A stretch of 64,000 nucleotides of DNA from Candidatus Krumholzibacteriia bacterium (lineage in GTDB: Bacteria; Krumholzibacteriota; Krumholzibacteriia; Krumholzibacteriales; Krumholzibacteriaceae). How positions within the stretch are numbered: position 1 is the stretch's first letter; each line of letters opens with the position of its first letter. This document shows, one piece after another, positions 1 through 12,893 of this stretch. The translations under genes and the position numbers were made by a program. The notes below the pieces were generated by a model. It did no database searches. It was given only the letters and a program-made list of their open reading frames with translations, and had not been told where the DNA came from. The stretch covers positions 96,001 through 160,000 of the forward strand of contig CAWIIQ010000002.1 in the NCBI GenBank assembly GCA_963836185.1. Direction: 5' to 3'.

Positions 1-408
1 AACGGGATGGCGCTCGCCAGGGATATGGGCAAGCCGGTGGTCATCGATTTCTATACATCGTGGTGCCGGTGGTGCAAGGTGATGGACAAGGAAACGTTCA
101 AGGATGAAGAGGTGGCCTCGTACCTCAGCGCGCACTTTATCTCTATAAAACTCAACGCTGAGCAGACGAACACAAAGATCCAGTACGGAGGGCGCACGTA
201 CACTCCCGCCGCCCTCGCCAGGGCGTTCAAGCTGAGGGGCTACCCCTCGGTAGCCTATCTCGACGAGAAGGGCGCGCTGATCTTCGTCGATACAGGGTTC
301 AAGAAGGCCGGCCAGTTCATGGTCAACCTCAAGTATGTAAAAAGCGGGTGCTACAGCAAGGGTGTGTCTATCGAGGAGTTCAGGAGGCGCGGAGGGAAAT
401 GCGACTGA
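1..408 (+). CDS. Thioredoxin-family protein (SoxW/Thioredoxin_2-like), probably 5'-truncated by the window
   Basis: KPVVIDFYTSWCRWCKVMD (CxxC) and RGYPS cis-Pro motif; frame is open back to position 1. Confidence 0.85.
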   Translation, partial: NGMALARDMGKPVVIDFYTSWCRWCKVMDKETFKDEEVASYLSAHFISIKLNAEQTNTKIQYGGRTYTPAALARAFKLRGYPSVAYLDEKGALIFVDTGFKKAGQFMVNLKYVKSGCYSKGVSIEEFRRRGGKCD

Positions 409-507
409 ACGGTCCAGTGACAAAACGTTGACTTGCGCCCGGACGCTGTTCGGGCATATGATACAGTAGTCATGTGATTCACCGACATTTAAACGAGGAA
501 GGCAAAG

Positions 508-1590
508 ATGAGGATAGGAGTGCTTACAGGCGGTGGAGACGCTCCCGGGCTGAATCCGGCGGTGGCCGGAGTAGTGGAGCGGGCGACGATGTACGGTTAC
601 GAAGTGTTGGGACTGAAGAGGGGCTGGGAATCGATCTCGGTAAGGGAGAACGATGGTCATGTGGTGGAGCTGGGTCCCGAGATCATCAGGGAATACAGCA
701 GGCTCGGTGGAAGCAAGCTGCAGTGCAGCCGTACCAATCCTGTCTCAGAGGATAACGACAGGACCGACATAGTAAAAGAGAACATGAAGAAGCTGAAGCT
801 CGACGCGATAGTGGCGATAGGCGGGGAAGACACACTCGGGGCCGCTTCCGTTCTTTTCGACCGGGGGATTCCCGTCGTCGGTATCCCCAAGACTATAGAC
901 CGTGACCTGTACGGCACTGAATACTCCCTCGGATACGATACAGCTCTCAACGTCATCTGCGAGAGCGCACAGCGCATCGCTCATTCGGCCGAGTCTCACC
1001 AGACGATCTTCTTCCTCGAGGTCATGGGGAGGCACGCAGGATGGCTCGCCCTTCGCGGCGGGGAAGCGGCGTTCGCCGACATCATCCTTATTCCCGAGCA
1101 TCCCTTCAGCGTCGGCCATCTCAAGGATGTCCTCCGCGAGCAGCTCGAGATGAGCCGCGACCAGGGATTCGACCAGATCTACAAGATGATCGTCGTATCG
1201 GAAGGATCGCATATCGAGGGCGAGGAGGAGGTCCGCAAGGATACCAAGCTCGACGAGTTCGGGCATTACAGCCTCGGCGGGGTGGGCAACTACCTCAAGG
1301 GACTTCTCGAGCACGATTTCCGCCTGACGAGATATACCGCCCTCGCCTACCTGCAGCGCGGCGCTCAGCCGACCCAGAAAGACAGGGCGATGGGAAGACG
1401 TTTCGGCCATAATGCCGTCGAGATGATAAAGAACGGAGACTACGGGTTTTACGTAGGGGTCCAGAGGGCGAGGCTGGTCAAGGTGCGGATGCCCGAGATA
1501 AGGAAATCCCCCAGCCTGGTCGATGTCGAGAAGCATTACGACACGAAGAGGCTCAACGTAAAGCAGCAGTGGACCGACATGGAGGATTGA
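508..1590 (+). CDS. pfp: 6-phosphofructokinase, probably PPi-dependent (group III-like)
   Basis: GGGDAPG, GGEDT, PKTIDRD and MGR motifs; RBS GAGGAAGG upstream. Confidence 0.85.
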   Translation: MRIGVLTGGGDAPGLNPAVAGVVERATMYGYEVLGLKRGWESISVRENDGHVVELGPEIIREYSRLGGSKLQCSRTNPVSEDNDRTDIVKENMKKLKLDAIVAIGGEDTLGAASVLFDRGIPVVGIPKTIDRDLYGTEYSLGYDTALNVICESAQRIAHSAESHQTIFFLEVMGRHAGWLALRGGEAAFADIILIPEHPFSVGHLKDVLREQLEMSRDQGFDQIYKMIVVSEGSHIEGEEEVRKDTKLDEFGHYSLGGVGNYLKGLLEHDFRLTRYTALAYLQRGAQPTQKDRAMGRRFGHNAVEMIKNGDYGFYVGVQRARLVKVRMPEIRKSPSLVDVEKHYDTKRLNVKQQWTDMED

Positions 1591-1604
1591 CCGCCCGGTC
1601 TTTG

Positions 1605-2762
1605 TCAGTCGCGCCTGAACAGGGCCACCGACTCCACGTGATATGTCCCCGGGAACATGTCGATGAGGTGTATCTCGGAAGGCGTCCATTGCGCCTCGAC
1701 GAGTCTCGCCGCGTCGCGCGCGAATGTCGGCGCGTCGCATGAGACCATGATGATCTCTCTCGGGCGCAGCTTGATTATCGATTTCAGGACGCTCGCCGGT
1801 ATCCCGGACCTGGGCGGATCAGTCAGGACGAGATCGATCTCCCCTATCCTGGAGAATCCCCTCTCGGCAGTTTCCCTTATGAATTTGACATTGGCTGCCT
1901 TGTTCAGCCTGGCCGATGCGACGGCGTTCTTGTGGGCCTGCCGCTGGACCTCGATCCCCACCACGTCTATCGCTCTGCGGGCCATCGGGAGGGAAAAGAA
2001 ACCGACCCCGCAGTAGAGGTCGAGAAACTTTTTCGCCGTCTGTGTCGGGAGGGATACAGCCAGATCCATCAGAGAGTCGTTGAGATAGCGGTTTATCTGG
2101 AAGAACGCCTCCGGATAGACGGGGAAGCTGAAATCGCCCGCCTTCATAAGGATATCGGGCGGGCTGATCACGCCTTCGACGCCCCAGAAATGAATGGCGC
2201 CGAAACTGTCCAGCCTTGACCTTACCTTTGTGCCCGGCGTCAGCGCTTCCGGATCGAGTGCCGATATGGCCTCTCTCATCTCGGGCGGAAGCAGAAGGCA
2301 TCCCTGAGCGGGAAAGGGGACGATCTCGCTTGATTCCCTCTTTGAGAAGCCGGCCACACCGCCGGAGCCGACCTTGAACAGGGCGTGATTGCGGTAGCCG
2401 AAGCGTTCCGGGCATGGAGTATACGAGGCGATTTCCATATCGATCTTGCCGATGCGCTTCAGCGTCGAAAGGAATGTCTCTTTCTTGATCCTCGTTTCTT
2501 CCTCGTAATCGAGATGGAGGAAATGGCACCCTCCACACCGGCCGAAGACCGGACATTGCGCTTCCCGCCTCGACGGGGAAGGCTCTACTATTCCCGTTAT
2601 CTCGCCGAAGAGACAGTTCTTCTTTTTCTTTGTGACGGTGAATTCGACCGTATCGCCTGAGGCGGCGTAAGGCAGAAACAGGGTCATGTCCTCGAACCAG
2701 GCCAGCCCAAGGCCTCCGTATACGACTTTCTCTATCCTTGTTTTTCCGGTTTTTCCTTCCAT
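1605..2762 (-). CDS. rlmD: 23S rRNA m5U methyltransferase, RlmD/TrmA family, with TRAM domain
   Basis: CPVFGRCGGC Fe-S motif, FFQIN, LDLYCGVG, DPPR, catalytic SC, DMFPGTYHVE. Confidence 0.85.
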   Translation of the reverse strand: MEGKTGKTRIEKVVYGGLGLAWFEDMTLFLPYAASGDTVEFTVTKKKKNCLFGEITGIVEPSPSRREAQCPVFGRCGGCHFLHLDYEEETRIKKETFLSTLKRIGKIDMEIASYTPCPERFGYRNHALFKVGSGGVAGFSKRESSEIVPFPAQGCLLLPPEMREAISALDPEALTPGTKVRSRLDSFGAIHFWGVEGVISPPDILMKAGDFSFPVYPEAFFQINRYLNDSLMDLAVSLPTQTAKKFLDLYCGVGFFSLPMARRAIDVVGIEVQRQAHKNAVASARLNKAANVKFIRETAERGFSRIGEIDLVLTDPPRSGIPASVLKSIIKLRPREIIMVSCDAPTFARDAARLVEAQWTPSEIHLIDMFPGTYHVESVALFRRD

Positions 2763-2891
2763 GGGGAATACTATATGTCAATGGCCTCCTGAAATCTACA
2801 CTTTACCGCCCGGCCTCCTGCGCATATTATTCTCCAATACGTCTTACACGCATTACGGCGGCACTGGGCGCCAATTCAGCGGGAGATTTAT

Positions 2892-4103
2892 TTGCGCATC
2901 GGAATGGTGCTTCAGACGACTATACCTCCGCACGATATCCGGGTGGAAAAGGAAGCAGGGACCCTCATCTCGGAAGGGCACGAGGTCCATCTCCTCCTGG
3001 AGGGTGCCGGGGGGCAGCCTCGCGAGGAGATGTGGGAGGGGATGCATCTGCTGCGCGGAGTGAGGATGAGCAGCGCGAGGGAGAAATTTCACAGGTACAC
3101 TTTCAATTTCACCTTCCGGGACAGGCTCTGGCGGCGGGCGATGACCGATTTCGTAAGGAGCAGGAAGATAGATGTCCTGCACGTGCACGACCTTCCGCTC
3201 GTCGGCGAGGCTGTCCGCGTCGGAAGGGCCGAGGGCATACCCGTCGTTGCAGACCTCCACGAGAACTTTCCCGGGGGGCTGCAGGTCTGGTATACCAGCG
3301 GGTGGAAAAAGAAGACGATATACAATTTCGGCCGGTGGTCGCGTTACGAGAGGGAGATCCTGGGAGAAGTCGACGCGGTGATCGCCGTTGTCGAGGAATC
3401 AAAGAAGCGGCTCGAGGGGATCGGGGTGCCCGGCGAAAAGATATTCGTCGTATCGAACACGGCACACCGCAAGGGGGAGGAAACCCCCGTAGATCTCGAT
3501 ATCCTCGAGAAATACCGTGACAGGTTCGTGATCTCGTATGTAGGCAAGTTCTCGGCTCACCGGGGACTCGATGTGATAATCGGCGCGATGCCTGAGCTGC
3601 GCGAAAAGGTGTCCGATATACTTCTTCTTCTGGTCGGCGACAGGAACAAGCCGTACATGGATTACCTGGTCCGCCTCGTTGACAGGCTGGGATGCGGTGA
3701 CGTCGTAGAGATGACCGGCTGGCAGACCTTCGACAGGATCTGGAGCTACATACACGCGAGCGATGTCTGCCTTGTTCCGCACCAGAGGAATCCGCATACC
3801 GATACGACTATTCCTCACAAGATATTCCAGTACATGATGCTGGGCAAGCCGGTGCTCGTTAGCGACTGCCCGCCCCTTGCGAGGGTGATCACAGATTCAG
3901 GCGGCGGGCTGGTCTTCAGATACGACGATCCGGATGATTTCGCCGCGAAAGTCAGGCAGCTGCGTGACGATGCGGACCTTCGCGTGAAGGTCTCCGAAGC
4001 GGGGAGAGAAGCGTTTCTCGACAGATACAACTGGGAAAAGACAAGCGGGGAGCTGATAAGGCTGTACGAAGGCATCGGCCGCAGTCAGGGAGGAAAAAAT
4101 TGA
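2892..4103 (+). CDS. Glycosyltransferase family 4
   Basis: [27 protein letters not shown]-terminal YNWE; TTG start after GGGAG. Confidence 0.9.
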
Positions 4104-5203
4104 AGGTAAAACTGCTCGATCTCACAGCTCAGTATGAAAATATTCGCGCAGAGGTGATGGAAGCGGTCACTGAGGTCTTCGATTCGCAGTACTTTATCAT
4201 GGGCCCGAAGGTGGCGGAGCTCGAAAAGGAGATCGCCGGATACTGTGACACGAAAGACGCAGTCGGCGTGGCATCGGGCAGCGACGCGATCCTCCTCGCC
4301 CTCATGGCGCTCGGGCTCGGCCCGGGTGACGAGGTGATAACTACGCCCTATACCTTTTTCTCAACGGTCAGCAGCATTACGAGACTCGGTGCCCGGCCCG
4401 TTTTCGCCGATATCGATCCCATCACGTACAATATCGATCCGGCCGCTGTTGCGGCCGCTGTCACAGACAGGACAAAAGCGATCCTCATAGTCCACCTTTA
4501 CGGGCAGATGGCAGAGATGGACCCGATACTCGAAGTCGCGGGCGCGCGCGGGATACCGGTCATCGAGGATGCCTGCCAGGCGATAGGTGCTGAATACAAG
4601 GGACGCAAGGCAGGTTCGATCGGGCTTGCCGGTTGTTTTTCCTTTTTCCCCTCGAAGAACCTCGGCGGGGCCGGCGACGGCGGCATCATAACTACGAGCG
4701 ATGAGAAGCTCGCCGGGGACCTGCGCCGGCTGCGGAATCATGGAGGCAGGGAGAGGTACTACCACGACGAGGTGGGTATCAACAGCCGCCTCGATGCCCT
4801 GCAGGCGGCCGTCCTGCTCGTCAAGCTGAGGCACCTCGACGCCTGGAGCGACGGCCGTATCTCGAATGCGGCCCGGTATGACCGTATGCTTGGCGGTATC
4901 GAGGGGGTTACGACTCCGGCGGTCAGCGAGGGAAACCGCCATATCTACAACCAGTATGTGATCCGGGCCCGGCGGCGCGACGATCTCAAGTCTTTCCTGC
5001 AGGAGAACGATATCGGATGCGAGATCTATTATCCCGTTCCGCTTCACCTTCAGAAATGTTTCTCTTTCCTTGGCGGGGCCGAGGGAGATTGTCCCGAGTC
5101 GGAAAGGGCGGCGCTCGAGACGCTTGCGCTTCCGATCTTTACCGAACTGACACCTGAGATGCAGGAGTATGCCGCGGGGAAGATCGTGGAGTTCTACCGG
5201 TAG
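4100..5203 (+). CDS. DegT/DnrJ/EryC1/StrS PLP-dependent sugar aminotransferase
   Basis: [22 protein letters not shown] (PLP lysine), [10 protein letters not shown]. Confidence 0.95.
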
Positions 5204-5247
5204 GCGACAGCCTGCCCGCATCAGTTGGCCGGACAGTGGAGGCTCTC

Positions 5248-6387
5248 TTGAAGATCGTCTGTTTTTCGGAGATCCAGTGGCACTATGTCAGGACGCGCAA
5301 GCAGCAGATCCTGTCGAGGTTCCCGGATGACCGCAGGATCCTCTTCCTGTCAACGGTAGTCAGGGGAAGGCGAAGCAATTTCAGGCCCGAGAGGGACGGC
5401 AATGTCGTGCATGCCTGTGTCCCAGTTCTCAAGAATTTCCCGCAGAAATGGGCCAGGGCTCTCTTTTCTTTCCCTCCGGCGAGGTTTCTCTGGAACGTGA
5501 TGCTTTTCGTATGGCTGAAAATACTACTGCGGGCGACCGGATTTCATCGAAGCGACCGGGTATTCTACGTATCGAACGTTTACTATGCCCCTGTCCTTCC
5601 CCTGCTTTCGAGAAAGCTCATGCTTTACGACTGCAATGACGATCCGGCCTCTTTCCCGAATGTGCCGGGATGGGTCCAGGGCTGCTTCGAGAGGGTCGCG
5701 CGTGATGCTGACGTCGTGACGGCGGTCAGCGCCGGACTCGTCGAAAGGCTCAATGAAGCGGGCGCTGGAGACGCGGTGCTTCTGGGGAACGGCGTCGATT
5801 ACGATATGTTCCAGAGGTCCGCCGCGGCCGGTATCCCGGACGATATGAATGTCCTGGGGCGCCCGGTGATCGGATATGTGGGCGCCATCGCGCAGTGGTT
5901 CGATTTCGAGCTGGTTGAGATGATCGCGAGGAGGTTCCCGGGGGCGTCGATCGCCCTGATAGGGCCTGTCTTCCGGGAAGTGGAGGAGGCGGCGCGACGG
6001 CTAGCGGAAGAGAGAAAGAATGTCGTCTTCATGGGCGAGAAGAAGTATGACGATCTCGGGGCTTACCTTTCATCGATGGATGTATGCATGATTCCGCTCG
6101 AGGTAAACGAGCTTCGCCGCCTGGCGGATCCGAATAAACTCTACGAATACGCCGCCGCGGGCAGGCCGATCGTCACCATGGCCTTTTCTGAATATGTCGA
6201 ATCTCTCGATGGACTCGTATATGTGGCGCGTTCGCGCGGGGAGTTTGCAGACAAGGTCGAGGAAGCCCTCGGAAAGGGAGATGATTCGGAGGCCCTGCGG
6301 GAATTCGCACGCGCGAGAAGCTGGCAGAGCCGGGCCGATGAGATGACCGGGCTTATCGATGAGGCATTAGAAAAGAAACTGAATTGA
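5248..6387 (+). CDS. GT-B glycosyltransferase (TuaH-like)
   Basis: YDCNDD, NGVD, GYVGAIAQWFD, PNKLYEYAAAGRPIV; TTG start chosen from the GGAGG RBS. Confidence 0.85.
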   Translation: MKIVCFSEIQWHYVRTRKQQILSRFPDDRRILFLSTVVRGRRSNFRPERDGNVVHACVPVLKNFPQKWARALFSFPPARFLWNVMLFVWLKILLRATGFHRSDRVFYVSNVYYAPVLPLLSRKLMLYDCNDDPASFPNVPGWVQGCFERVARDADVVTAVSAGLVERLNEAGAGDAVLLGNGVDYDMFQRSAAAGIPDDMNVLGRPVIGYVGAIAQWFDFELVEMIARRFPGASIALIGPVFREVEEAARRLAEERKNVVFMGEKKYDDLGAYLSSMDVCMIPLEVNELRRLADPNKLYEYAAAGRPIVTMAFSEYVESLDGLVYVARSRGEFADKVEEALGKGDDSEALREFARARSWQSRADEMTGLIDEALEKKLN

Positions 6388-6414
6388 ATCCGGACTTATC
6401 ATGAAAGGAGCAGC

Positions 6415-7659
6415 ATGAAAAAGATCATTTCGCTAGCGGCGGCCATGGCATTAACGGTGGCCGTCATCTTCGTGGCCGGTATCCTGCCGTCCTGTTCAGG
6501 CGAAAAGGATACTGGCGGCACGTCGGACCTCTATCTCCTCGAGGAGCTGGAAACTGCCCGCTCGGTCGAGGATCCGGACAAGAGGATCGAGAGGCTCGAG
6601 ATCTTCGCGGCCAACAATGAGGGTCACCCATACCGGTCCATGGCGCTCGAGAGCATCATGGAGACGATGGCTGTCGATAAGGGTGACGTCGAGGGAGCGC
6701 TCGCTTTTTTCGATGTGTTGATGGATGAAGAGACTGACCCTGCGATCCGCGGGAAGCTTCTTTTCGCGAAGTTCGAATTCTTCTGGGAATCTGATTCGCT
6801 GCAGTCGGTCGCTCTCGCGAAGGATGTGATCGACAGCGAAGAGACTGATTTCAGGCTCCTTATGTACATGGCCTATTACCTGATGGGAGCGGAGGGACAG
6901 GAGGAGGTCGCCGACGCCGTATTCTCGCGGCTCATCGAGGTGACGGACGATGAGCACAGGAAGAATCATGCCCGCACTATCTATGCCGAGTTCCTCGAGG
7001 CCGGGGAGCGCGGGGAGGAAGCGGCAGCGGTGCTCGAACTTGCCTCGTCATATACCTTCGCCAACGCTCCCCTGGGGCGCATGCTCTGGGATGAAGGAAA
7101 CCGCGAAGAGGCTCTGGAGAAATATATATCCCTGTCGGCCGGGGCTCCCGGATACCGGAAATATATCAAGCTGGACAGCCTATACGCGATAGTCCATCCG
7201 GAACCGAACGATCTCGAATCGAGGATTGCGGAGCTCAGGATAATCGATGGCCCGCAGATTCCGGACAGGGAGTTTGTCGATATCCGGGGGATGCAGCATT
7301 CGATCTCCGGCTACCGCGGGACGAAGATGGTGATAACAGCCTTCAGCCCCACCTGACCTCCCTGTATTGCGGAGTTGCCGCAAATGGAGGAACTGAAGAA
7401 GGAAGAAGAGACCCTCGGGTTCAAGCTGCTTCTGATAGACGGGAAGGGGATGCTCGGAAAGACCCGCGGTATCATGGATGACAAGGGAGTCACGATACCG
7501 GTGCTTCTTGACAGCCATCAGTATTCACGGGAGGTACTCGGTACGATGTATACCCCGACTACCTACGTGATCGACGCGGCGGGAATGGTGAGGTGCCGGC
7601 TCGTCGGGCATTCGGATGATTTCAACGGGATAATCGCCGATGTACTGAGCCGGATATAG
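6415..7659 (+). CDS. Putative selenoprotein: lipoprotein with helical N-terminal domain and C-terminal TlpA/ResA-like thiol-disulfide oxidoreductase domain (UxxC, Sec at TGA 7354-7356)
   Basis: ORFs 6415-7356 and 7375-7659 share a frame; read-through gives TAFSPT-U-PPCIAELPQMEEL...YTPTTYVID; lipobox LPSC; hairpin follows the UGA. Confidence 0.85.
7357..7390 (+). promoter_or_regulatory. Bacterial SECIS-like hairpin
   Basis: CCTCC/GGAGG lower stem, TTGCGG/CCGCAA upper stem, apical loop AGTTG with G at position 2, 16 nt between UGA and loop. Confidence 0.75.
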
Positions 7660-7671
7660 CCGATTCCGGAC

Positions 7672-7794
7672 AAAAAAAAGGCGGGGACCGTGCCTGAAAA
7701 AAGGGGTGGGGTTCTCGTCACGTTGTCTGTCGAAGTTGCTTCGCAGTCCAGACGAGAACCCCGGAGGGGTGTTCCCCGAACAATTGGGTCTCGC
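7672..7794 (-). ncRNA. Structured small RNA (~120 nt), candidate short 6S RNA
   Basis: Rod-like fold: 5'/3' end pairing, UGUU/GGCA helix, C-rich central bubble, perfect 12-bp GGGGUUCUCGUC/GACGAGAACCCC stem, terminal U8; own promoter. Confidence 0.6.
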
Positions 7795-7800
7795 ATCTAC

Positions 7801-7828
7801 AAGATAACAAAGAATCGTTATAAGTCAA
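7801..7828 (-). promoter_or_regulatory. Sigma70-type promoter for the small RNA
   Basis: Minus strand TTGACT-16 nt-TATCTT with extended -10 TGn, AT-rich upstream; predicted TSS ~7794. Confidence 0.7.
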
Positions 7829-7891
7829 GAATTATTATGTGACAAAATCTGTCAGTTATTCCAGTTATCCTCGTATCAGCTATATATTCAG

Positions 7892-9493
7892 TTAGATACC
7901 AACTCCAACAGGTTCTCCGGCAGTGATAGTGATCATCGCTTCCGATACCTGCTCATGGAGCTCATGGGAAATTTCGAGTTTTTCCGCCCTTTCGAGGACC
8001 GCGACCGCTTCCCTGCTGTCTCCCATTTCTGAATCGAGGACTTTCGCAAGGGCTATCGATGACTTGGCGGTCACCGAGGGAACATTGTTGCACGTGATGA
8101 TGAACCTGTGGATGTCTACCGCCTCGGGAAAATGACCCTGCGACGAGAGCCATTTCGCCGACCTGAGCAGCAGCTGGGGATTGACGTCGACCGACGCGGG
8201 GGACCTGTCCTCGATTATCTCCAGCGCCAGTCTCGCCGCTTCCTCGTTACGGGATTTGAGCAGCAGGTTCTTCAGCACCTTCTCGTTTATCTCGCAGCAC
8301 TCGTCGCTCATCCCATGTTCCCTGTAGAGGACCGCGATGTCCTGCTGAAGTCCGAGGTCCTGCGGACGCTCGCTGACAAGAGTGCCGAAGAGAAGTCTGG
8401 CCCGCTCGATGTTGCCCGAGGAAAGGAGCTCGCATGCCTCGTCGAATCTCGGATCCTTGAGCACCCCGTTGTCGACCCTCGCCTTCTGGACCGATGGATC
8501 GATCCATTTCGCTTCGACTCCCGTCGCCTTGAATACGAGCGCCGTGACAACTCCTCCCATGTATCCGGCAATGTGCGCTACGTATGCCACTCCGGAACCA
8601 CCCATGAAATCGGAAAGTTCTTTGAACGCGACCTGTTGTATGAACCAGAATGGCAGGAATACGAACGCGGGCAGGTAGAAGGTTCCCCAGAACGGCCGGA
8701 ATAAGAGAAGGAAAAAGTAGAAGAACTTTATCTTTGTCATGAAATGCCTGACCGTGAACGCGCCCATCGCCGCGGCGATCGCTCCCGACGCGCCGATCAT
8801 CGGAACTGTCGATCCTGAATCGGATAGGCAGTGCGCCAGGCCGGCGAAGATCCCTCCGAGGAGGTAGAATCCCAGGAATGTCTTTCTGCCCCAGGTGTCC
8901 TCCAGAAGACATCCGACTACCCACAGAAAGAGCATATTTCCGAGGAGGTGCCAGATGTCGCCGTGCAGGAACATATGCGTGATAAATGTGTGGACCCTTC
9001 CCATCCTGCTCGGAACGAGGCCGAGTGCGTAGTTGACATGGCTGTCCAGGACCTTTGCCTCTCTTTCCTTGAGTCTCTTCCAGTCGGTAAAATCGCTCGC
9101 TTCCTGGCTGAATTCCGGGTAGTACGATTCGCCCCTCTCGGTAAGGTCCAGTCCGAACGCTTCGATATCTTTGAACGCGTCGTAAGATCCGCCCATTGCC
9201 GCCATCAGGCCGATCTCGAGATCGTAGTAGTCTTCGGCGTACTCCATTCTCTCGATCCCGCTCGCCTCTTCGGGGCTGATGTACCCGGGCAGGCCGCTTT
9301 CGCCGTTCTTTTCCATGACGTACAGGCGTACCTGCTGGGTATAAAGGTCCCGGTGGACCCGGAACATATCTTCCCCGGTCTGCCCCGACATCGAGGTCGC
9401 GATGATATGCACTACTACGCATGCAGCGATAAGTCCGATCGTGATTTTAGGCTTGAGTGCCAGATCGGCCTTGGTTCCTATGGGGATGATCAT
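7892..9493 (-). CDS. Rhomboid family intramembrane serine protease with C-terminal TPR-like helical domain
   Basis: THMFLHGDIWHLLGNM, IGASG (Ser), AHIAG (His); ATG at 9493 (MIIPIG) after GGAAGAAAGG. Confidence 0.9.
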   Translation of the reverse strand: MIIPIGTKADLALKPKITIGLIAACVVVHIIATSMSGQTGEDMFRVHRDLYTQQVRLYVMEKNGESGLPGYISPEEASGIERMEYAEDYYDLEIGLMAAMGGSYDAFKDIEAFGLDLTERGESYYPEFSQEASDFTDWKRLKEREAKVLDSHVNYALGLVPSRMGRVHTFITHMFLHGDIWHLLGNMLFLWVVGCLLEDTWGRKTFLGFYLLGGIFAGLAHCLSDSGSTVPMIGASGAIAAAMGAFTVRHFMTKIKFFYFFLLLFRPFWGTFYLPAFVFLPFWFIQQVAFKELSDFMGGSGVAYVAHIAGYMGGVVTALVFKATGVEAKWIDPSVQKARVDNGVLKDPRFDEACELLSSGNIERARLLFGTLVSERPQDLGLQQDIAVLYREHGMSDECCEINEKVLKNLLLKSRNEEAARLALEIIEDRSPASVDVNPQLLLRSAKWLSSQGHFPEAVDIHRFIITCNNVPSVTAKSSIALAKVLDSEMGDSREAVAVLERAEKLEISHELHEQVSEAMITITAGEPVGVGI

Positions 9494-9708
9494 GAGCGGA
9501 CCTTTCTTCCAGTCGCCTTTCCTCGCGGAAGGTGGACGTTGCAATATGAGACTGCCCGTAGGGCAGCCGGAAATATCACTGCCGGGCGTGCTGTATAACC
9601 GCTTGTAATCAAATATCTTGTTTAGCTGTTCCCGTCCCGGCCGACCGTTTCGTGAAGTAATCTGCAAGAAGGATTCCAGACCCGTGCCGGAAGGTGGAAG
9701 AGGGGCCT

Positions 9709-10344
9709 CTAGCGGGAGCCGGCCGCCTTGTGGGCCATCGCGAGGGGCACGGGAATGCGGTACTTCGGTGAGCAGGCGAGGACTGTCAGTATCGCAGTGT
9801 GAAGGTCTATCATGTGCCCCGGTGAGACGTAAACGGGCCTTACTCCCGTTCTTGTCCTGAGCACGGATCCTATCACCCGGCCGGACCGGTCCTCGACCGT
9901 GGAACTGTCCCCACGCTCCGGCCCCGGCTCATCGTGCCTGCCGAAGAGGTGCGACTTGGCGCAGCCGATCGATGGTATGCCGAGGTCGATGCCGAGATGG
10001 CTTGCCATGCCCAGGCCCCTCGGATGTGCCGTGCCGTGACTGTCGCAGAGGATCAGGCCGGGGACCGTACGAAGCTCTTTCCACGCTTCCAGTATCGGAG
10101 GTATCTCACGGAACGAGAGCAGGCCGGGGATGTAGGGGAAAGATGTCGGTGAATCCCGTACGACAGTCTCGACCGGTTCGAGGCCGGGGAAGGTGACGAC
10201 GACCAGCGCGGCCCGCGAGGTCTCGCGCCGGGGGAAATGCACGTCGGCCGCTGCGATCGTGGCGACCCTACGTCCGTCCCATTTCGTGCTGACCATCCCG
10301 CTGAGGTTTTTCTGGAGCTCTATTGCCTCGGAAAGGGTAACCAT
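9709..10344 (-). CDS. nfi: Endonuclease V (deoxyinosine 3' endonuclease)
   Basis: PYIPGLLSFRE, DSHGTAHPRGLGMASHLG, IGCAKS, PVYVSPGH. Confidence 0.95.
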   Translation of the reverse strand: MVTLSEAIELQKNLSGMVSTKWDGRRVATIAAADVHFPRRETSRAALVVVTFPGLEPVETVVRDSPTSFPYIPGLLSFREIPPILEAWKELRTVPGLILCDSHGTAHPRGLGMASHLGIDLGIPSIGCAKSHLFGRHDEPGPERGDSSTVEDRSGRVIGSVLRTRTGVRPVYVSPGHMIDLHTAILTVLACSPKYRIPVPLAMAHKAAGSR

Positions 10345-10362
10345 TGCCTGACCTGCGACGCG

Positions 10363-11475
10363 TCAGTGGCTCGGTTCATCGTCTGCGACCAATAACGCGA
10401 GCTTGAAAATCAAACCATCTTTATCGATATGATTTTCACAATTAGTGAAAATTATAAAATGAATATCGCTGTCCGGGAAGTACCAGTGCATCGACCAATA
10501 GCCTGGACCACCACCCGCATGCGCGATGGTCCGATAACCATTGAATACGCGAGGCTGAACACCATATCCATACCCGGTATCTTCACCATTTAAAAGATGA
10601 TAACCGGTTCGAGCTTTCTCCAGGTTCTCTCTGGTCACGATCTTATAAGTATTAAGTGCCTGATAATATCTGTTGAAGTCGCCAACGGTGCTGACTAGCG
10701 CACCTGCTGAATATAAGACTGAAGGACTTACATATTCCGCGTTTTCAAAACCCTCCGGTCCTTTCATATATCCCTTTGATCTCTTCGTGATGATCCTGTT
10801 ATAGTCGTTGTAGTATGTATTTTCCATTTCAGCAGGCTCAAAAATGGATTTCTCCAGATACTCCTGATATGACATCCCTGATGCTTTTTCAATGATGTAC
10901 CCTAGTAAATAATAACCGGAATTGCTATATCGGTATTCTGTCCCAGGCTCGAAATCCAATTCCTCATCGATAAATAGATCGATAAATTCAGAGGGGGTAT
11001 GGTCCCTTCTCCAGACTGACTGGTCAAAATCCTCTGATGACAGGTAATCAGGAATTCCCGATGTGTGTGTCAGGAGATGTTCGATTGTTATTGTATTTCC
11101 ACCTGTCGGATAGTCAGGAATGAACCTCGTTATCGGGTCCTGCAGAGATACTTTCCCTTGTTCGGTCAAAAGCAAAACGGCTGTTGCTGTAAATTGTTTT
11201 GTATTTGATGCTATCTCAAATACATAGTCAGGTGTAAGGGGAACGCCCAGTTCCATGTCTGCCATTCCAAATGCTTTTTCATATATGATCTCACCTCTTC
11301 GCGATATTAAAACAGAACAGCCAGGCTCGTCTGATTTGAATTCTTTTGATAGAGCAGTATTGATCTCATCGATTACCGCTTTTTCATCAATCGAGAATGG
11401 GCTGGCGCCTGAAAGCATAAAGAGCGTCAGGCAGATCAACACGAGGAAACGCGATCTTATCCTGCAATGTACCAA
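10363..11475 (-). CDS. Serine hydrolase, beta-lactamase/AmpC-like family, exported; low GC
   Basis: IASNTKQFT (SxxK), LLTHTSG, YSNSGY (YxN), HAG; signal-like N-terminus. Confidence 0.9.
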   Translation of the reverse strand: MVHCRIRSRFLVLICLTLFMLSGASPFSIDEKAVIDEINTALSKEFKSDEPGCSVLISRRGEIIYEKAFGMADMELGVPLTPDYVFEIASNTKQFTATAVLLLTEQGKVSLQDPITRFIPDYPTGGNTITIEHLLTHTSGIPDYLSSEDFDQSVWRRDHTPSEFIDLFIDEELDFEPGTEYRYSNSGYYLLGYIIEKASGMSYQEYLEKSIFEPAEMENTYYNDYNRIITKRSKGYMKGPEGFENAEYVSPSVLYSAGALVSTVGDFNRYYQALNTYKIVTRENLEKARTGYHLLNGEDTGYGYGVQPRVFNGYRTIAHAGGGPGYWSMHWYFPDSDIHFIIFTNCENHIDKDGLIFKLALLVADDEPSH

Positions 11476-11495
11476 TGGATTTCACTTTCTGAATA

Positions 11496-12893
11496 TCAGC
11501 TTATCTCCACTTCCTCGCCCGGCTCGGGCAGGTGCGCCGGGTAACCCTCCGCGATAAGGGTGTTGAAGAGCTCGCGGGACTGCTCTTCCTCACCGTGCAC
11601 GAGGAATATCCCTTTGACAGTGTCCTTAAGGGGTTTTACGTACTCGAGCAGATCGTTGCGGTCGGCGTGAGCACTGAAGGCGTTCATGATCTCTACCTCG
11701 GCCTTCAGGCCGTATTCCTCGCCGAAGATCTTTACGACGGGCTGTCTTTCGGCGATCTTGCGGCCCAGGGTGTTTCTGGCCATGTAGCCTACGATGAGAA
11801 TGGTGTTTCTCGGATCGCCGATATTGTTCTTGAGGTGATGGAGGATCCTGCCGGCTTCGCACATACCCGACGCGGAGATGATTATCATCGGCCTGTCATC
11901 GCTGTTCAGTTCCTTGGACCGCTCAACATTCTTGACGTACTCGAAGTTGAGCGTTCCCAGCGGATCCTCGCCCGTGTTGAAAGACTTGTACATCTCTTCG
12001 TCATATACCTGCGGATGGTGTGAGAAGATCTCGGTTATCTTCGTGGCGAGCGGGCTGTCGATTATCACGGGGATATCGGGGAGCCTGCCTTCGAGACGCA
12101 GCTGGTTGAGGAAGTAGACGATCTCCTGCGTCCTCTCGAGAGCGAAGGACGGAATGATTATCTTGCCGCCCCTCTTGACCGTCCGGGAGACGCAGTCGGC
12201 CAGCTTTTCCTTGCCTGTCTCGGCAGGATCGTGTACCCGTCCTCCGTAAGTGCTCTCGAGGATGAGCCAGTCTATCTCGGGAGGCTGTTCAGGGTCGTTG
12301 AGTATCGGGATATCCTTCCGTCCGAGATCGACGGCATAAGCCAGCTTGACCTTGTTGTCATCATCCCCGATCTCGATAAGGGGAGTTGCAGATCCGAGTA
12401 CGTGACCGGCATCGTAAAAGGTCACATCGATATCATCTGTGACGTTGACCCTCTGGTTGTAGGGATGGCCCGTGAAAAATTCCAGGGATTCCTGGGCCTC
12501 TTCCTTCGTATAGATAGGCTTTACGGAAGGGAGGCCTTTCCTTTTGTGAAGCTTGCTTACATATTTGGCGTCTGATTCCTGGATGTGCCCGCTGTCGGGG
12601 AGCATGGCAGAGCAGAGATCCCTCGTTGGATCCGTAGTGACGATCCTCCCTCCGAAGTCCTGCTTTACTAGGTTGGGGATGTTGCCGCTGTGATCGATAT
12701 GAGCGTGGGAAAGGATGCATGCGTCGAGTTCGCCCGGCACGAAGTCGAACGTTGAGTTTTTCTCGAAGAAATCCTGCCGGCGTCCCTGGAACAGTCCGCA
12801 ATCGATGATGACCTTCGAGTTTTCCGTTGTGATGAGGTGATTCGACCCGGTTACTTCCCTGACCGCTCCCAGAAACTTCAGCTTGATTCCCAT
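11496..12893 (-). CDS. MBL-fold beta-CASP ribonuclease (YSH1-like)
   Basis: EVTGS, DCG, HAHIDHSG, AGHVLGS, ESTYG, FSAHAD. Confidence 0.95.
   Translation of the reverse strand: MGIKLKFLGAVREVTGSNHLITTENSKVIIDCGLFQGRRQDFFEKNSTFDFVPGELDACILSHAHIDHSGNIPNLVKQDFGGRIVTTDPTRDLCSAMLPDSGHIQESDAKYVSKLHKRKGLPSVKPIYTKEEAQESLEFFTGHPYNQRVNVTDDIDVTFYDAGHVLGSATPLIEIGDDDNKVKLAYAVDLGRKDIPILNDPEQPPEIDWLILESTYGGRVHDPAETGKEKLADCVSRTVKRGGKIIIPSFALERTQEIVYFLNQLRLEGRLPDIPVIIDSPLATKITEIFSHHPQVYDEEMYKSFNTGEDPLGTLNFEYVKNVERSKELNSDDRPMIIISASGMCEAGRILHHLKNNIGDPRNTILIVGYMARNTLGRKIAERQPVVKIFGEEYGLKAEVEIMNAFSAHADRNDLLEYVKPLKDTVKGIFLVHGEEEQSRELFNTLIAEGYPAHLPEPGEEVEIS

Follow-up and report, generated by a model that had tools for sequence, protein, structure and literature searches.

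The locus and its reading frame

The window analysed here is a 64,000-nt stretch of DNA from a Candidatus Krumholzibacteriia bacterium (assembly GCA_963836185.1, contig CAWIIQ010000002.1, positions 96,001 to 160,000). On its forward strand, a frame begins with an ATG at 6415, passes through a single in-frame TGA (7354–7356) and ends at a TAG (7657–7659). A first-pass annotation had noted that the ORF ends in a TGA exactly where the first cysteine of a thioredoxin fold belongs and that the frame stays open to 7659, and this was borne out when the frame was read over the window. The 414-aa read-through product that it gave, AFSPT-U-PPCIAELPQMEEL with YTPTTYVID, matches our translation, which reads AFSPT-U-PPCIAELPQ around the motif and YTPTTYVID further on. 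As it had also foreseen for gene callers, the mechanical ORF list splits the gene in two, giving pieces of 313 aa and 94 aa. The features of the locus are as follows.

6415–7659, + strand: whole gene, 414 aa with the TGA read as selenocysteine (open frame, conservation, AlphaFold2 model).
6406–6410, + strand: Shine–Dalgarno-like AGGAG, 4 nt 5′ of the ATG (by sequence).
6415–6495, + strand: predicted lipoprotein signal peptide, with Cys27 at 6493–6495 (conservation; lipidation inferred).
6526–7239, + strand: TPR-like alpha-helical arm, residues 38–275 (AlphaFold2, fold matches).
7240–7656, + strand: TlpA/ResA-type thioredoxin-fold domain, residues 276–414 (Pfam, ResA 2f9s, Foldseek).
7354–7356, + strand: in-frame TGA, predicted Sec314, which opens the U-P-P-C motif; Cys317 at 7363–7365 (conserved column).
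7357–7390, + strand: SECIS-type hairpin within the coding sequence, 16 nt after the UGA (folding, pairing, frozen silent sites).
Parts of this hairpin, + strand: lower stem 7357–7361/7386–7390; upper stem 7367–7372/7378–7383; loop AGUUG 7373–7377.
7372–7374, + strand: Glu320, at the position of ResA Glu80, three residues past the second Cys (invariance, alignment with the ResA-type Glu).
7555–7557, + strand: Pro381, at the cis-proline position, with Thr before it (invariance, alignment to solved TlpA-family chains).

Conservation and recoding of the TGA

The protein was used to search 61 genomes, 46 of which are the source genome and the rest of its order. Within genus, family and order, TGA was found in all 40 places that span the site; the column was inspected directly in 35 of these (30 fetched loci and five more). 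One of the 46 order genomes had the N-terminal part only, and five gave no orthologue-level match. Three distant homologues, which belong to a different family within the class, also have TGA; two of the three are 21–22% identical over the full length. A wider profile, run over 151 genomes of the phylum, gave TGA in 53/53 matches above 200 bits, two of which carry a second stop; outside the order only 17 of 111 genomes were carriers, so the gene is patchy there. This conservation across relatives rules out a sequencing error at the TGA; in two sequencing runs consulted, reads gave no useful cover at this codon.

Because the pattern used for a GTDB scan (see below) had demanded part of the hairpin, metagenomes were scanned with a codon-neutral pattern, in which TGA, TGC or TGT was allowed and silent sites were free. 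At least 119 loci were returned (∼340 estimated). Among the matches listed, six were dropped as chance, and the 113 real ones, scoring over 25 bits, comprised 110 with TGA and three with TGC. A Cys-only pattern aimed at P0002 and P0003, two close forms with Cys, matched no metagenome stretch. Two database proteins, at 81–83% identity, have Cys at the site, which reflects either a true change or a U written as C. As the first-pass annotation had suggested that homologues might do, two database relatives and distant Cys proteins carry Cys at the TGA column, and in the profile alignment the U falls on the first Cys of WxxWCxxC, not on the preceding Trp.

It is very hard to credit that the TGA is instead a true stop, a Trp or Gly codon of an alternative code, or an error, so that a TPR lipoprotein would precede a fragment that is either separate or dead. 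Such a reading could draw on the frameshifts in selB in assembly GCA_963836185.1, on the 300–345 aa N-terminal piece that databases carry as a protein, and on the truncated product that may be expected in some amount under selenium shortage. A stop at this position, however, would cut the thioredoxin fold in two, and the 30 aligned orthologues speak against it twice over: residues 331–414 are as conserved (0.65) as the front of the protein (0.52–0.63), and neither TAA nor TAG replaces TGA in any of them. An alternative code or Trp read-through was rejected because TGA is the commonest stop in the source genome, ending 668 of 1234 long frames, because the sole tRNA with a TCA anticodon is tRNA-Sec, and because the TGA aligns with Cys, the Trp column being a different one. 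We conclude that the TGA at 7354–7356 is almost certainly recoded as selenocysteine, a prediction from sequence; at the level of the lineage, SelB-dependent insertion of Sec314 appears near certain. As judged from the sequence data, the interval 6415–7659 thus represents a real, well-supported selenoprotein gene, with a predicted function.

A SECIS-type hairpin overlaps the active-site codons

The 47 nt from the UGA fold with −15.3 kcal/mol (z −3.3), whilst the energies of longer windows are unremarkable (z −0.1 to −2.0). The bSECIS model described in PMC13188914 has a loop of 3–9 nt, an upper stem of 4–16 bp, a G within the first two loop positions, a spacing of 16–37 nt and an energy of at most −7.5 kcal/mol. 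Checked by hand against these values, the hairpin agrees on each, with a 5-nt loop (AGUUG), 6 bp, a 16-nt spacing and −15.3 kcal/mol. Across 30 orthologues the upper stem is paired in 99.4% of cells, compared with 27–76% for slid controls, and one of its pairs is altered on both sides in two of the 30. The lower stem was absent from the consensus of these orthologues. The coding consequence is a set of frozen silent positions: Ala319, Glu320 and Pro322 are encoded by GCG, GAG and CCG in 30/30 orthologues, while at 97 conserved degenerate positions outside 315–325 the mean share of the commonest codon is 0.55 and none reaches 100%. The codon for Glu320 also makes the top of the hairpin.

The GTDB pattern scan returned at least 116 loci (∼180 estimated). 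Of the 116 listed, 112 are TlpA-type P-T/D-U-x-x-C domains and four were dropped as chance. In the 112 listed matches, stem pair 17–27 is C-G in 42 and U-A in 70, with no mismatches, an alternation which ties the choice between Ala and Val to the silent base of Pro. Pairs 15–29 and 14–30, which the pattern did not set, are paired in 112/112 and 109/112 of the same matches. Among the metagenome matches listed, 107 of the 110 TGA forms have all six stem pairs, and the three distant Cys forms have two, four and five. A hairpin with covariation is therefore present 3′ of the TGA, the outcome that a SECIS search had been expected to give; the GTDB and metagenome sets overlap and the covariation is largely inherited by two large clades, so that cell counts overstate the number of independent events. 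With three covarying pairs across phyla, the hairpin offers a clean training set for SECIS models. The hairpin of selD has the same letters, CGGAGUUG, as that of this gene, 6 nt further from its UGA; these common letters are possibly a lineage-typical recognition loop for SelB.

Selenium machinery and other selenoproteins of the genome

For the selenocysteine genes that the first-pass annotation had proposed to look for, the result was mixed in one respect. The source genome has selA, selD and tRNA-Sec, all above their family cut-offs; the tRNA is 98 nt long with a TCA anticodon, the only such tRNA found, and selD (G000:C1:1062116) itself carries a TGA. selB was also found, but frameshifted in the assembly: it lies in three frames, with about ten single-base indels relative to its congeners (G000:C1:47922–49806), in 5/5 of which it is intact and above cut-off. 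The genes flanking selB, one tuf copy, dsbD and the Cys TlpA paralogue likewise carry indels, and loci with single-base indels lie at C1:47922–49806, C1:71071–72260, C1 near 780.8 kb and C3 near 169.7 kb. Assembly noise is the likelier source of the selB frameshifts, the assembly looking locally indel-noisy, and a gene called broken in this genome should be viewed with caution. A SelB C-terminal domain was found in 150/156 genomes of the phylum, which suggests that selenocysteine use is near universal in the Krumholzibacteriota lineage. Co-occurrence with selB was, for the same reason, rejected as discriminating evidence for the present gene; it is necessary without being discriminating.

At least six likely selenoproteins are encoded in the source genome, three of them predicted to be exported. 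A first SECIS-based scan of the genome was too noisy to define the selenoproteome. Amongst the individual genes are a Sec peroxiredoxin, PrxU (TxxU, over cut-off; L050:1306–2097), and a SelW-like CxxU protein with TIGR02174 over cut-off (L344:654–884, − strand). A predicted exported protein resembling OS_HP2/DUF1573, with U-G-C (L347:2897–3952, on G000:C3), is followed directly by the Cys TlpA paralogue and by a hydrogenase-like operon. There is also a UshA-like predicted exported lipoprotein with a PAG-U-G motif and four CxxCH (L343:4290–5675; G000:C1:1044289–1045674, + strand), which scores 199.5 of 275 bits with NF041198, under the cut-off, and is likely a multiheme selenoprotein by its sequence. 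It was matched in 80/80 phylum genomes tested, carriers and non-carriers of the present gene alike, so a specific link between the two was rejected. Outside the order its best matches usually have a second stop, which suggests two genes.

Architecture of the protein

AlphaFold2, given a 31-row alignment, produced a model with a mean pLDDT of 91.3, laid out as a signal helix, a loose linker (22–34), helical hairpins (38–275) and a thioredoxin fold from about residue 276. The signal has a basic start, a hydrophobic core and L-P-S-C; Cys27 is invariant in 31/31 aligned proteins in an otherwise variable signal (residues 1–27 average 31% conservation), and relatives have LSGC, LGGC or VTGC. The putative lipobox proposed by the first-pass annotation has this invariant cysteine and, at −2, a Pro that is atypical of lipoboxes. 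Export is highly likely in this clade on these sequence features, and lipidation at Cys27 is predicted, with the same reservation about the proline.

A helical, TPR-like region before the domain had also been proposed, at ∼290 aa; the helices are there (residues 38–275) and the length is nearer 240 aa. Folded alone, the arm is all-helical with a pLDDT of 94.5. Its best fold matches are TPR/HAT superhelices, with rmsd 5–9 and a Z of about 13, such as helical repeats often reach. A Foldseek search with the arm gave nothing at E 0.001, and its match to Pfam TPR_7 is 14.3 bits, under the cut-off; several distant relatives carry precomputed TPR Pfam matches. On these models, ‘TPR-like’ seems a fair description.

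The C-terminal part had been described as a complete TlpA/ResA-like domain with a cis-Pro, and the profile and fold comparisons agree. Across the TGA, residues 281–398 match Pfam AhpC-TSA PF00578 at 46.5 bits (cut-off 26) and Redoxin PF08534 at 40.8 bits (cut-off 26.6). The closest folds are Etrx2, ResA and DsbE (Z 20.4, 20.1 and 19.9; rmsd 1.8–1.9; 134–137 residues aligned); for ResA 2f9s, which Foldseek also ranks first, Z is 20.1 and rmsd 1.9 over 135 aligned residues. Glu320, invariant in 51/51, aligns with the Glu three residues after the second Cys of ResA-type proteins, and the invariant Pro381 is placed on the cis-Pro by the profile alignment. With its (C/U)xxC motif and cis-Pro position, the domain belongs to the broad TlpA/ResA/CcmG-type fold.

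Distribution, phylogeny and database truncation

The first point to note is that the gene is not the oddity that the first-pass annotation took it for, being one member of a large family in a class that is already catalogued. The 112 listed GTDB matches are labelled mostly Acidobacteriota (Thermoanaerobaculia, Holophagae) and Krumholzibacteriota, with further labels of Eisenbacteria, Gemmatimonadota, Fibrobacterota and Latescibacterota; a few labels among these listed matches occur singly and are possibly misbinned. Of the 77 real listed matches with long flanks, 68 have at least 280 open codons before the U and 66 have a signal-like start; a loose pattern finds a lipobox-like Cys in 44 of these 66. 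Six of the 77 are short forms that have no arm. These short exported forms (L061, L069, L081, L086, L111 and L112), of about 175–200 aa, have the same PT-U-xxC and hairpin, and several armless forms occur in Acidobacteriota-labelled records. Before the cis-Pro, members of the Acidobacteriota type carry Phe or Tyr, and those of the window's clade Thr.

Close database relatives of two members are cut before the active site in 33/35 and 75/75 cases; three further matches beyond the 75 are distant Cys proteins. The truncated relatives are named hypothetical or TPR protein, and the top rows end at profile position 305. Annotation thus nearly always truncates this family at the TGA, and recognition of the gene corrects a systematic error by which relatives lose the active site.

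A quick tree (LG+G4) that included part of the arm, with the Sec column masked, separated 22 Sec forms from 15 Cys forms with an SH-aLRT of 98. In a domain-only quick tree the window's clade stands apart from the other Sec forms, without starred support. A single origin of the Sec forms is allowed by these sequence trees and not proven.

Genomic neighbourhood

The gene lies 27 nt from an upstream glycosyltransferase gene, within a colinear block kept across the order (window 7–12893). The block is led by a thioredoxin-like protein, phosphofructokinase and RlmD, continues with two GT4-type glycosyltransferases around a DegT aminotransferase and then the present gene, and goes on to a rhomboid-TPR protein, endonuclease V and an MBL-fold protein on the other strand. 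A glycosyltransferase is upstream in 24/30 loci, and the aminotransferase directly upstream in four. A functional link to the glycosyltransferase/DegT operon was rejected, since this order-wide block is lost in other families and phyla. Scans of the locus for promoters and terminators gave only chance-level counts.

Comparison with known proteins

That UxxC thioredoxin-fold proteins are a known bacterial selenoprotein class, as the first-pass annotation held, is clear from Table 1 of the review PMC13188914, which catalogues them under PF00578, PF08534 and cd02966. Since the review names families by domain plus motif, our gene would fall in that class, with which it has in common the Pfam domains, the UxxC motif and a SECIS right after the UGA. 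It is set apart from the catalogued forms, as the review's text and table present them, by the export signal, the 240-aa TPR-like arm and the fixed P-T before the U. An exported TPR-bearing form is absent from the review's table, and the words TPR, tetratricopeptide, lipoprotein and Krumholz have no occurrence in its text. Exported selenoproteins of other kinds are known, of multiheme cytochrome and ABC substrate-binding types (PMC13188914). BSepDB (PMC13326102), which covers Thermoanaerobaculia genomes and takes its members from tblastn searches with known families, may already list some of the genes found here under a general label; ‘Krumholz’ had no match in the searched part of its supplement. 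Text look-ups in PMC9312934, PMC12013277 and PMC13745706 gave neither TPR nor tetratricopeptide, and our literature searches found no paper on this TPR-TlpA selenoprotein family and no selenoprotein study of Krumholzibacteriota. The exported PT-U form with a TPR-like arm is accordingly new, whilst the UxxC class itself, the recoding mechanism and the fold are not; the catalogue of bacterial selenoproteins gains an exported, TPR-bearing subfamily.

Amongst proteins with Cys, those of known TlpA type (ResA of Bacillus, CcmG/DsbE, TlpA of Bradyrhizobium, StoA and pneumococcal Etrx) have the same fold (Z about 20), an anchor outside the cytoplasm (predicted here), a motif with an internal Pro, the cis-Pro position and the Glu at +3; a DsbD-type donor in the genome is a further likeness to ResA-type systems. 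The present protein differs in having Sec for the first Cys, Thr where ResA-type proteins have Trp before the motif, Thr before the cis-Pro, a large helical arm and no link to cytochrome maturation genes, and with the ResA NCBIfam model it scores 43 of 170 bits, far below the cut-off. Closer in layout are Cys-type exported TPR-TlpA proteins (WGxWCxxC; P0084, P0087, P0108, P0109 and others), which have the same length and order of parts and form Atlas clusters of 390–450 aa from Acidobacteriota, Aminicenantota and Fidelibacterota. These are only about 20% identical to the window protein, have Cys for Sec, and lie on the opposite side of the branch from the 22 Sec forms; we found no experimentally tested function for any of them.

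Two existing models describe ResA-like folds with Sec, NF041054 (WAxxUGC, ResA-like) and NF053656 (TUGYCR), and the latter has the motif T-U-x-x-C-R in common with many distant family members. The window protein reaches 40 of 300 bits with the Sec thioredoxin-fold model, far under the cut-off, and NF053656 gives at most 26 of 100 bits among 12 family members. When the window protein, P0002 and 12 further Sec members were compared with ResA NF002854, TlpA NF047696, StoA NF041202, DsbE TIGR00385, NF041054 and NF053656, none passed.

Possible function

Thiol/selenol redox chemistry is a highly probable prediction for this domain. The best mechanism that our analysis offers, and one to which we lean, is that of an envelope reductase fed by DsbD, whose arm would bind clients. 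Very probably, SelB would bind the hairpin 16 nt downstream of the UGA and insert Sec314. The protein would then be exported, lipidated at Cys27 and anchored in the membrane. The exposed Sec314 would make the nucleophilic attack on a disulfide of the client, and Cys317 would resolve the mixed bond, leaving a Se–S bond, in an active site shaped by Pro381 and Glu320 as in ResA. DsbD may well relay cytoplasmic electrons and so re-reduce the enzyme. The TPR-like arm could select or hold clients, for which apo-cytochromes c and exported Cys or Sec proteins are candidates. In TlpA/ResA proteins the motif's first residue acts as the exposed nucleophile and its second resolves the mixed bond, reduction being restored by DsbD or CcdA; a Glu at +3 marks extracytoplasmic reductases of CcmG type, and a Thr that precedes the cis-Pro is usual in isomerases, not in CcmG-type reductases (PMC5909903). 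If the reductase role is true, the family provides a natural Sec/Cys pair with which to test the benefit of selenium in extracytoplasmic disulfide control.

In the source genome there is a homologue of DsbD, split by a frameshift, that has an N-terminal domain. Pairing of DsbD with TlpA domains is textbook knowledge, and a modelled complex would pass on resemblance. It also has a CcsB over cut-off and seven frames with at least two CxxCH, besides a UvrA-like one, and a second exported TlpA, of Cys type, that could do the job of ResA. In this genome the gene adjoins neither dsbD nor ccsB. The lack of linkage to ccsB or dsbD, the second Cys TlpA and the Thr before the cis-Pro lean against a fixed role in cytochrome maturation. 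When neighbourhoods were compared across families and phyla no neighbour was kept across the family, so that partner and client are guesses.

The same selenoprotein could, rather less probably, be an isomerase or repair chaperedoxin, for which CnoX is a comparison: the arm would hold damaged envelope proteins, and Sec would shuffle wrong disulfides or reduce oxidised Cys or Sec, much as in DsbC/DsbG or CnoX. The 240-aa TPR-like arm, the presence in the genome of at least two other predicted exported selenoproteins and the Thr before the cis-Pro in the window's clade, an isomerase trait (PMC5909903), would suit such a role. Fold and sequence are nevertheless of TlpA/ResA type with the +3 Glu kept, the Thr is Phe or Tyr in Acidobacteriota-type members, and the exported UshA-like selenoprotein, occurring in 80/80 genomes, provides no specific link. 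There is less still to recommend an envelope peroxidase, or an electron donor to one, in which Sec would resist over-oxidation. The PxxxTxxU motif of peroxiredoxins (PMC13188914) is missing, the motif present is a UxxC with cis-Pro and +3 Glu, and the genome has a separate Sec peroxiredoxin.

To return to the DsbD-fed reductase, a bolder version, which is improbable as it stands, would make the Sec forms a single old multi-phylum clade of envelope chaperedoxins, coupling DsbD to the TPR arm so that multiheme cytochromes and exported selenoproteins stay reduced while they mature. If true, there would be an extracytoplasmic reducing branch based on selenium, carried unseen by hundreds of genomes from sediment and soil; its SECIS would overlie the catalytic helix, RNA pairing dictating Ala or Val next to the ResA-type Glu.

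Two genomes of the class (L042, L043) also encode a different secreted redoxin, with the motif G-Y-G-U-x-Q-C and a hairpin 3′ of its UGA, which is a candidate for a separate selenoprotein family.
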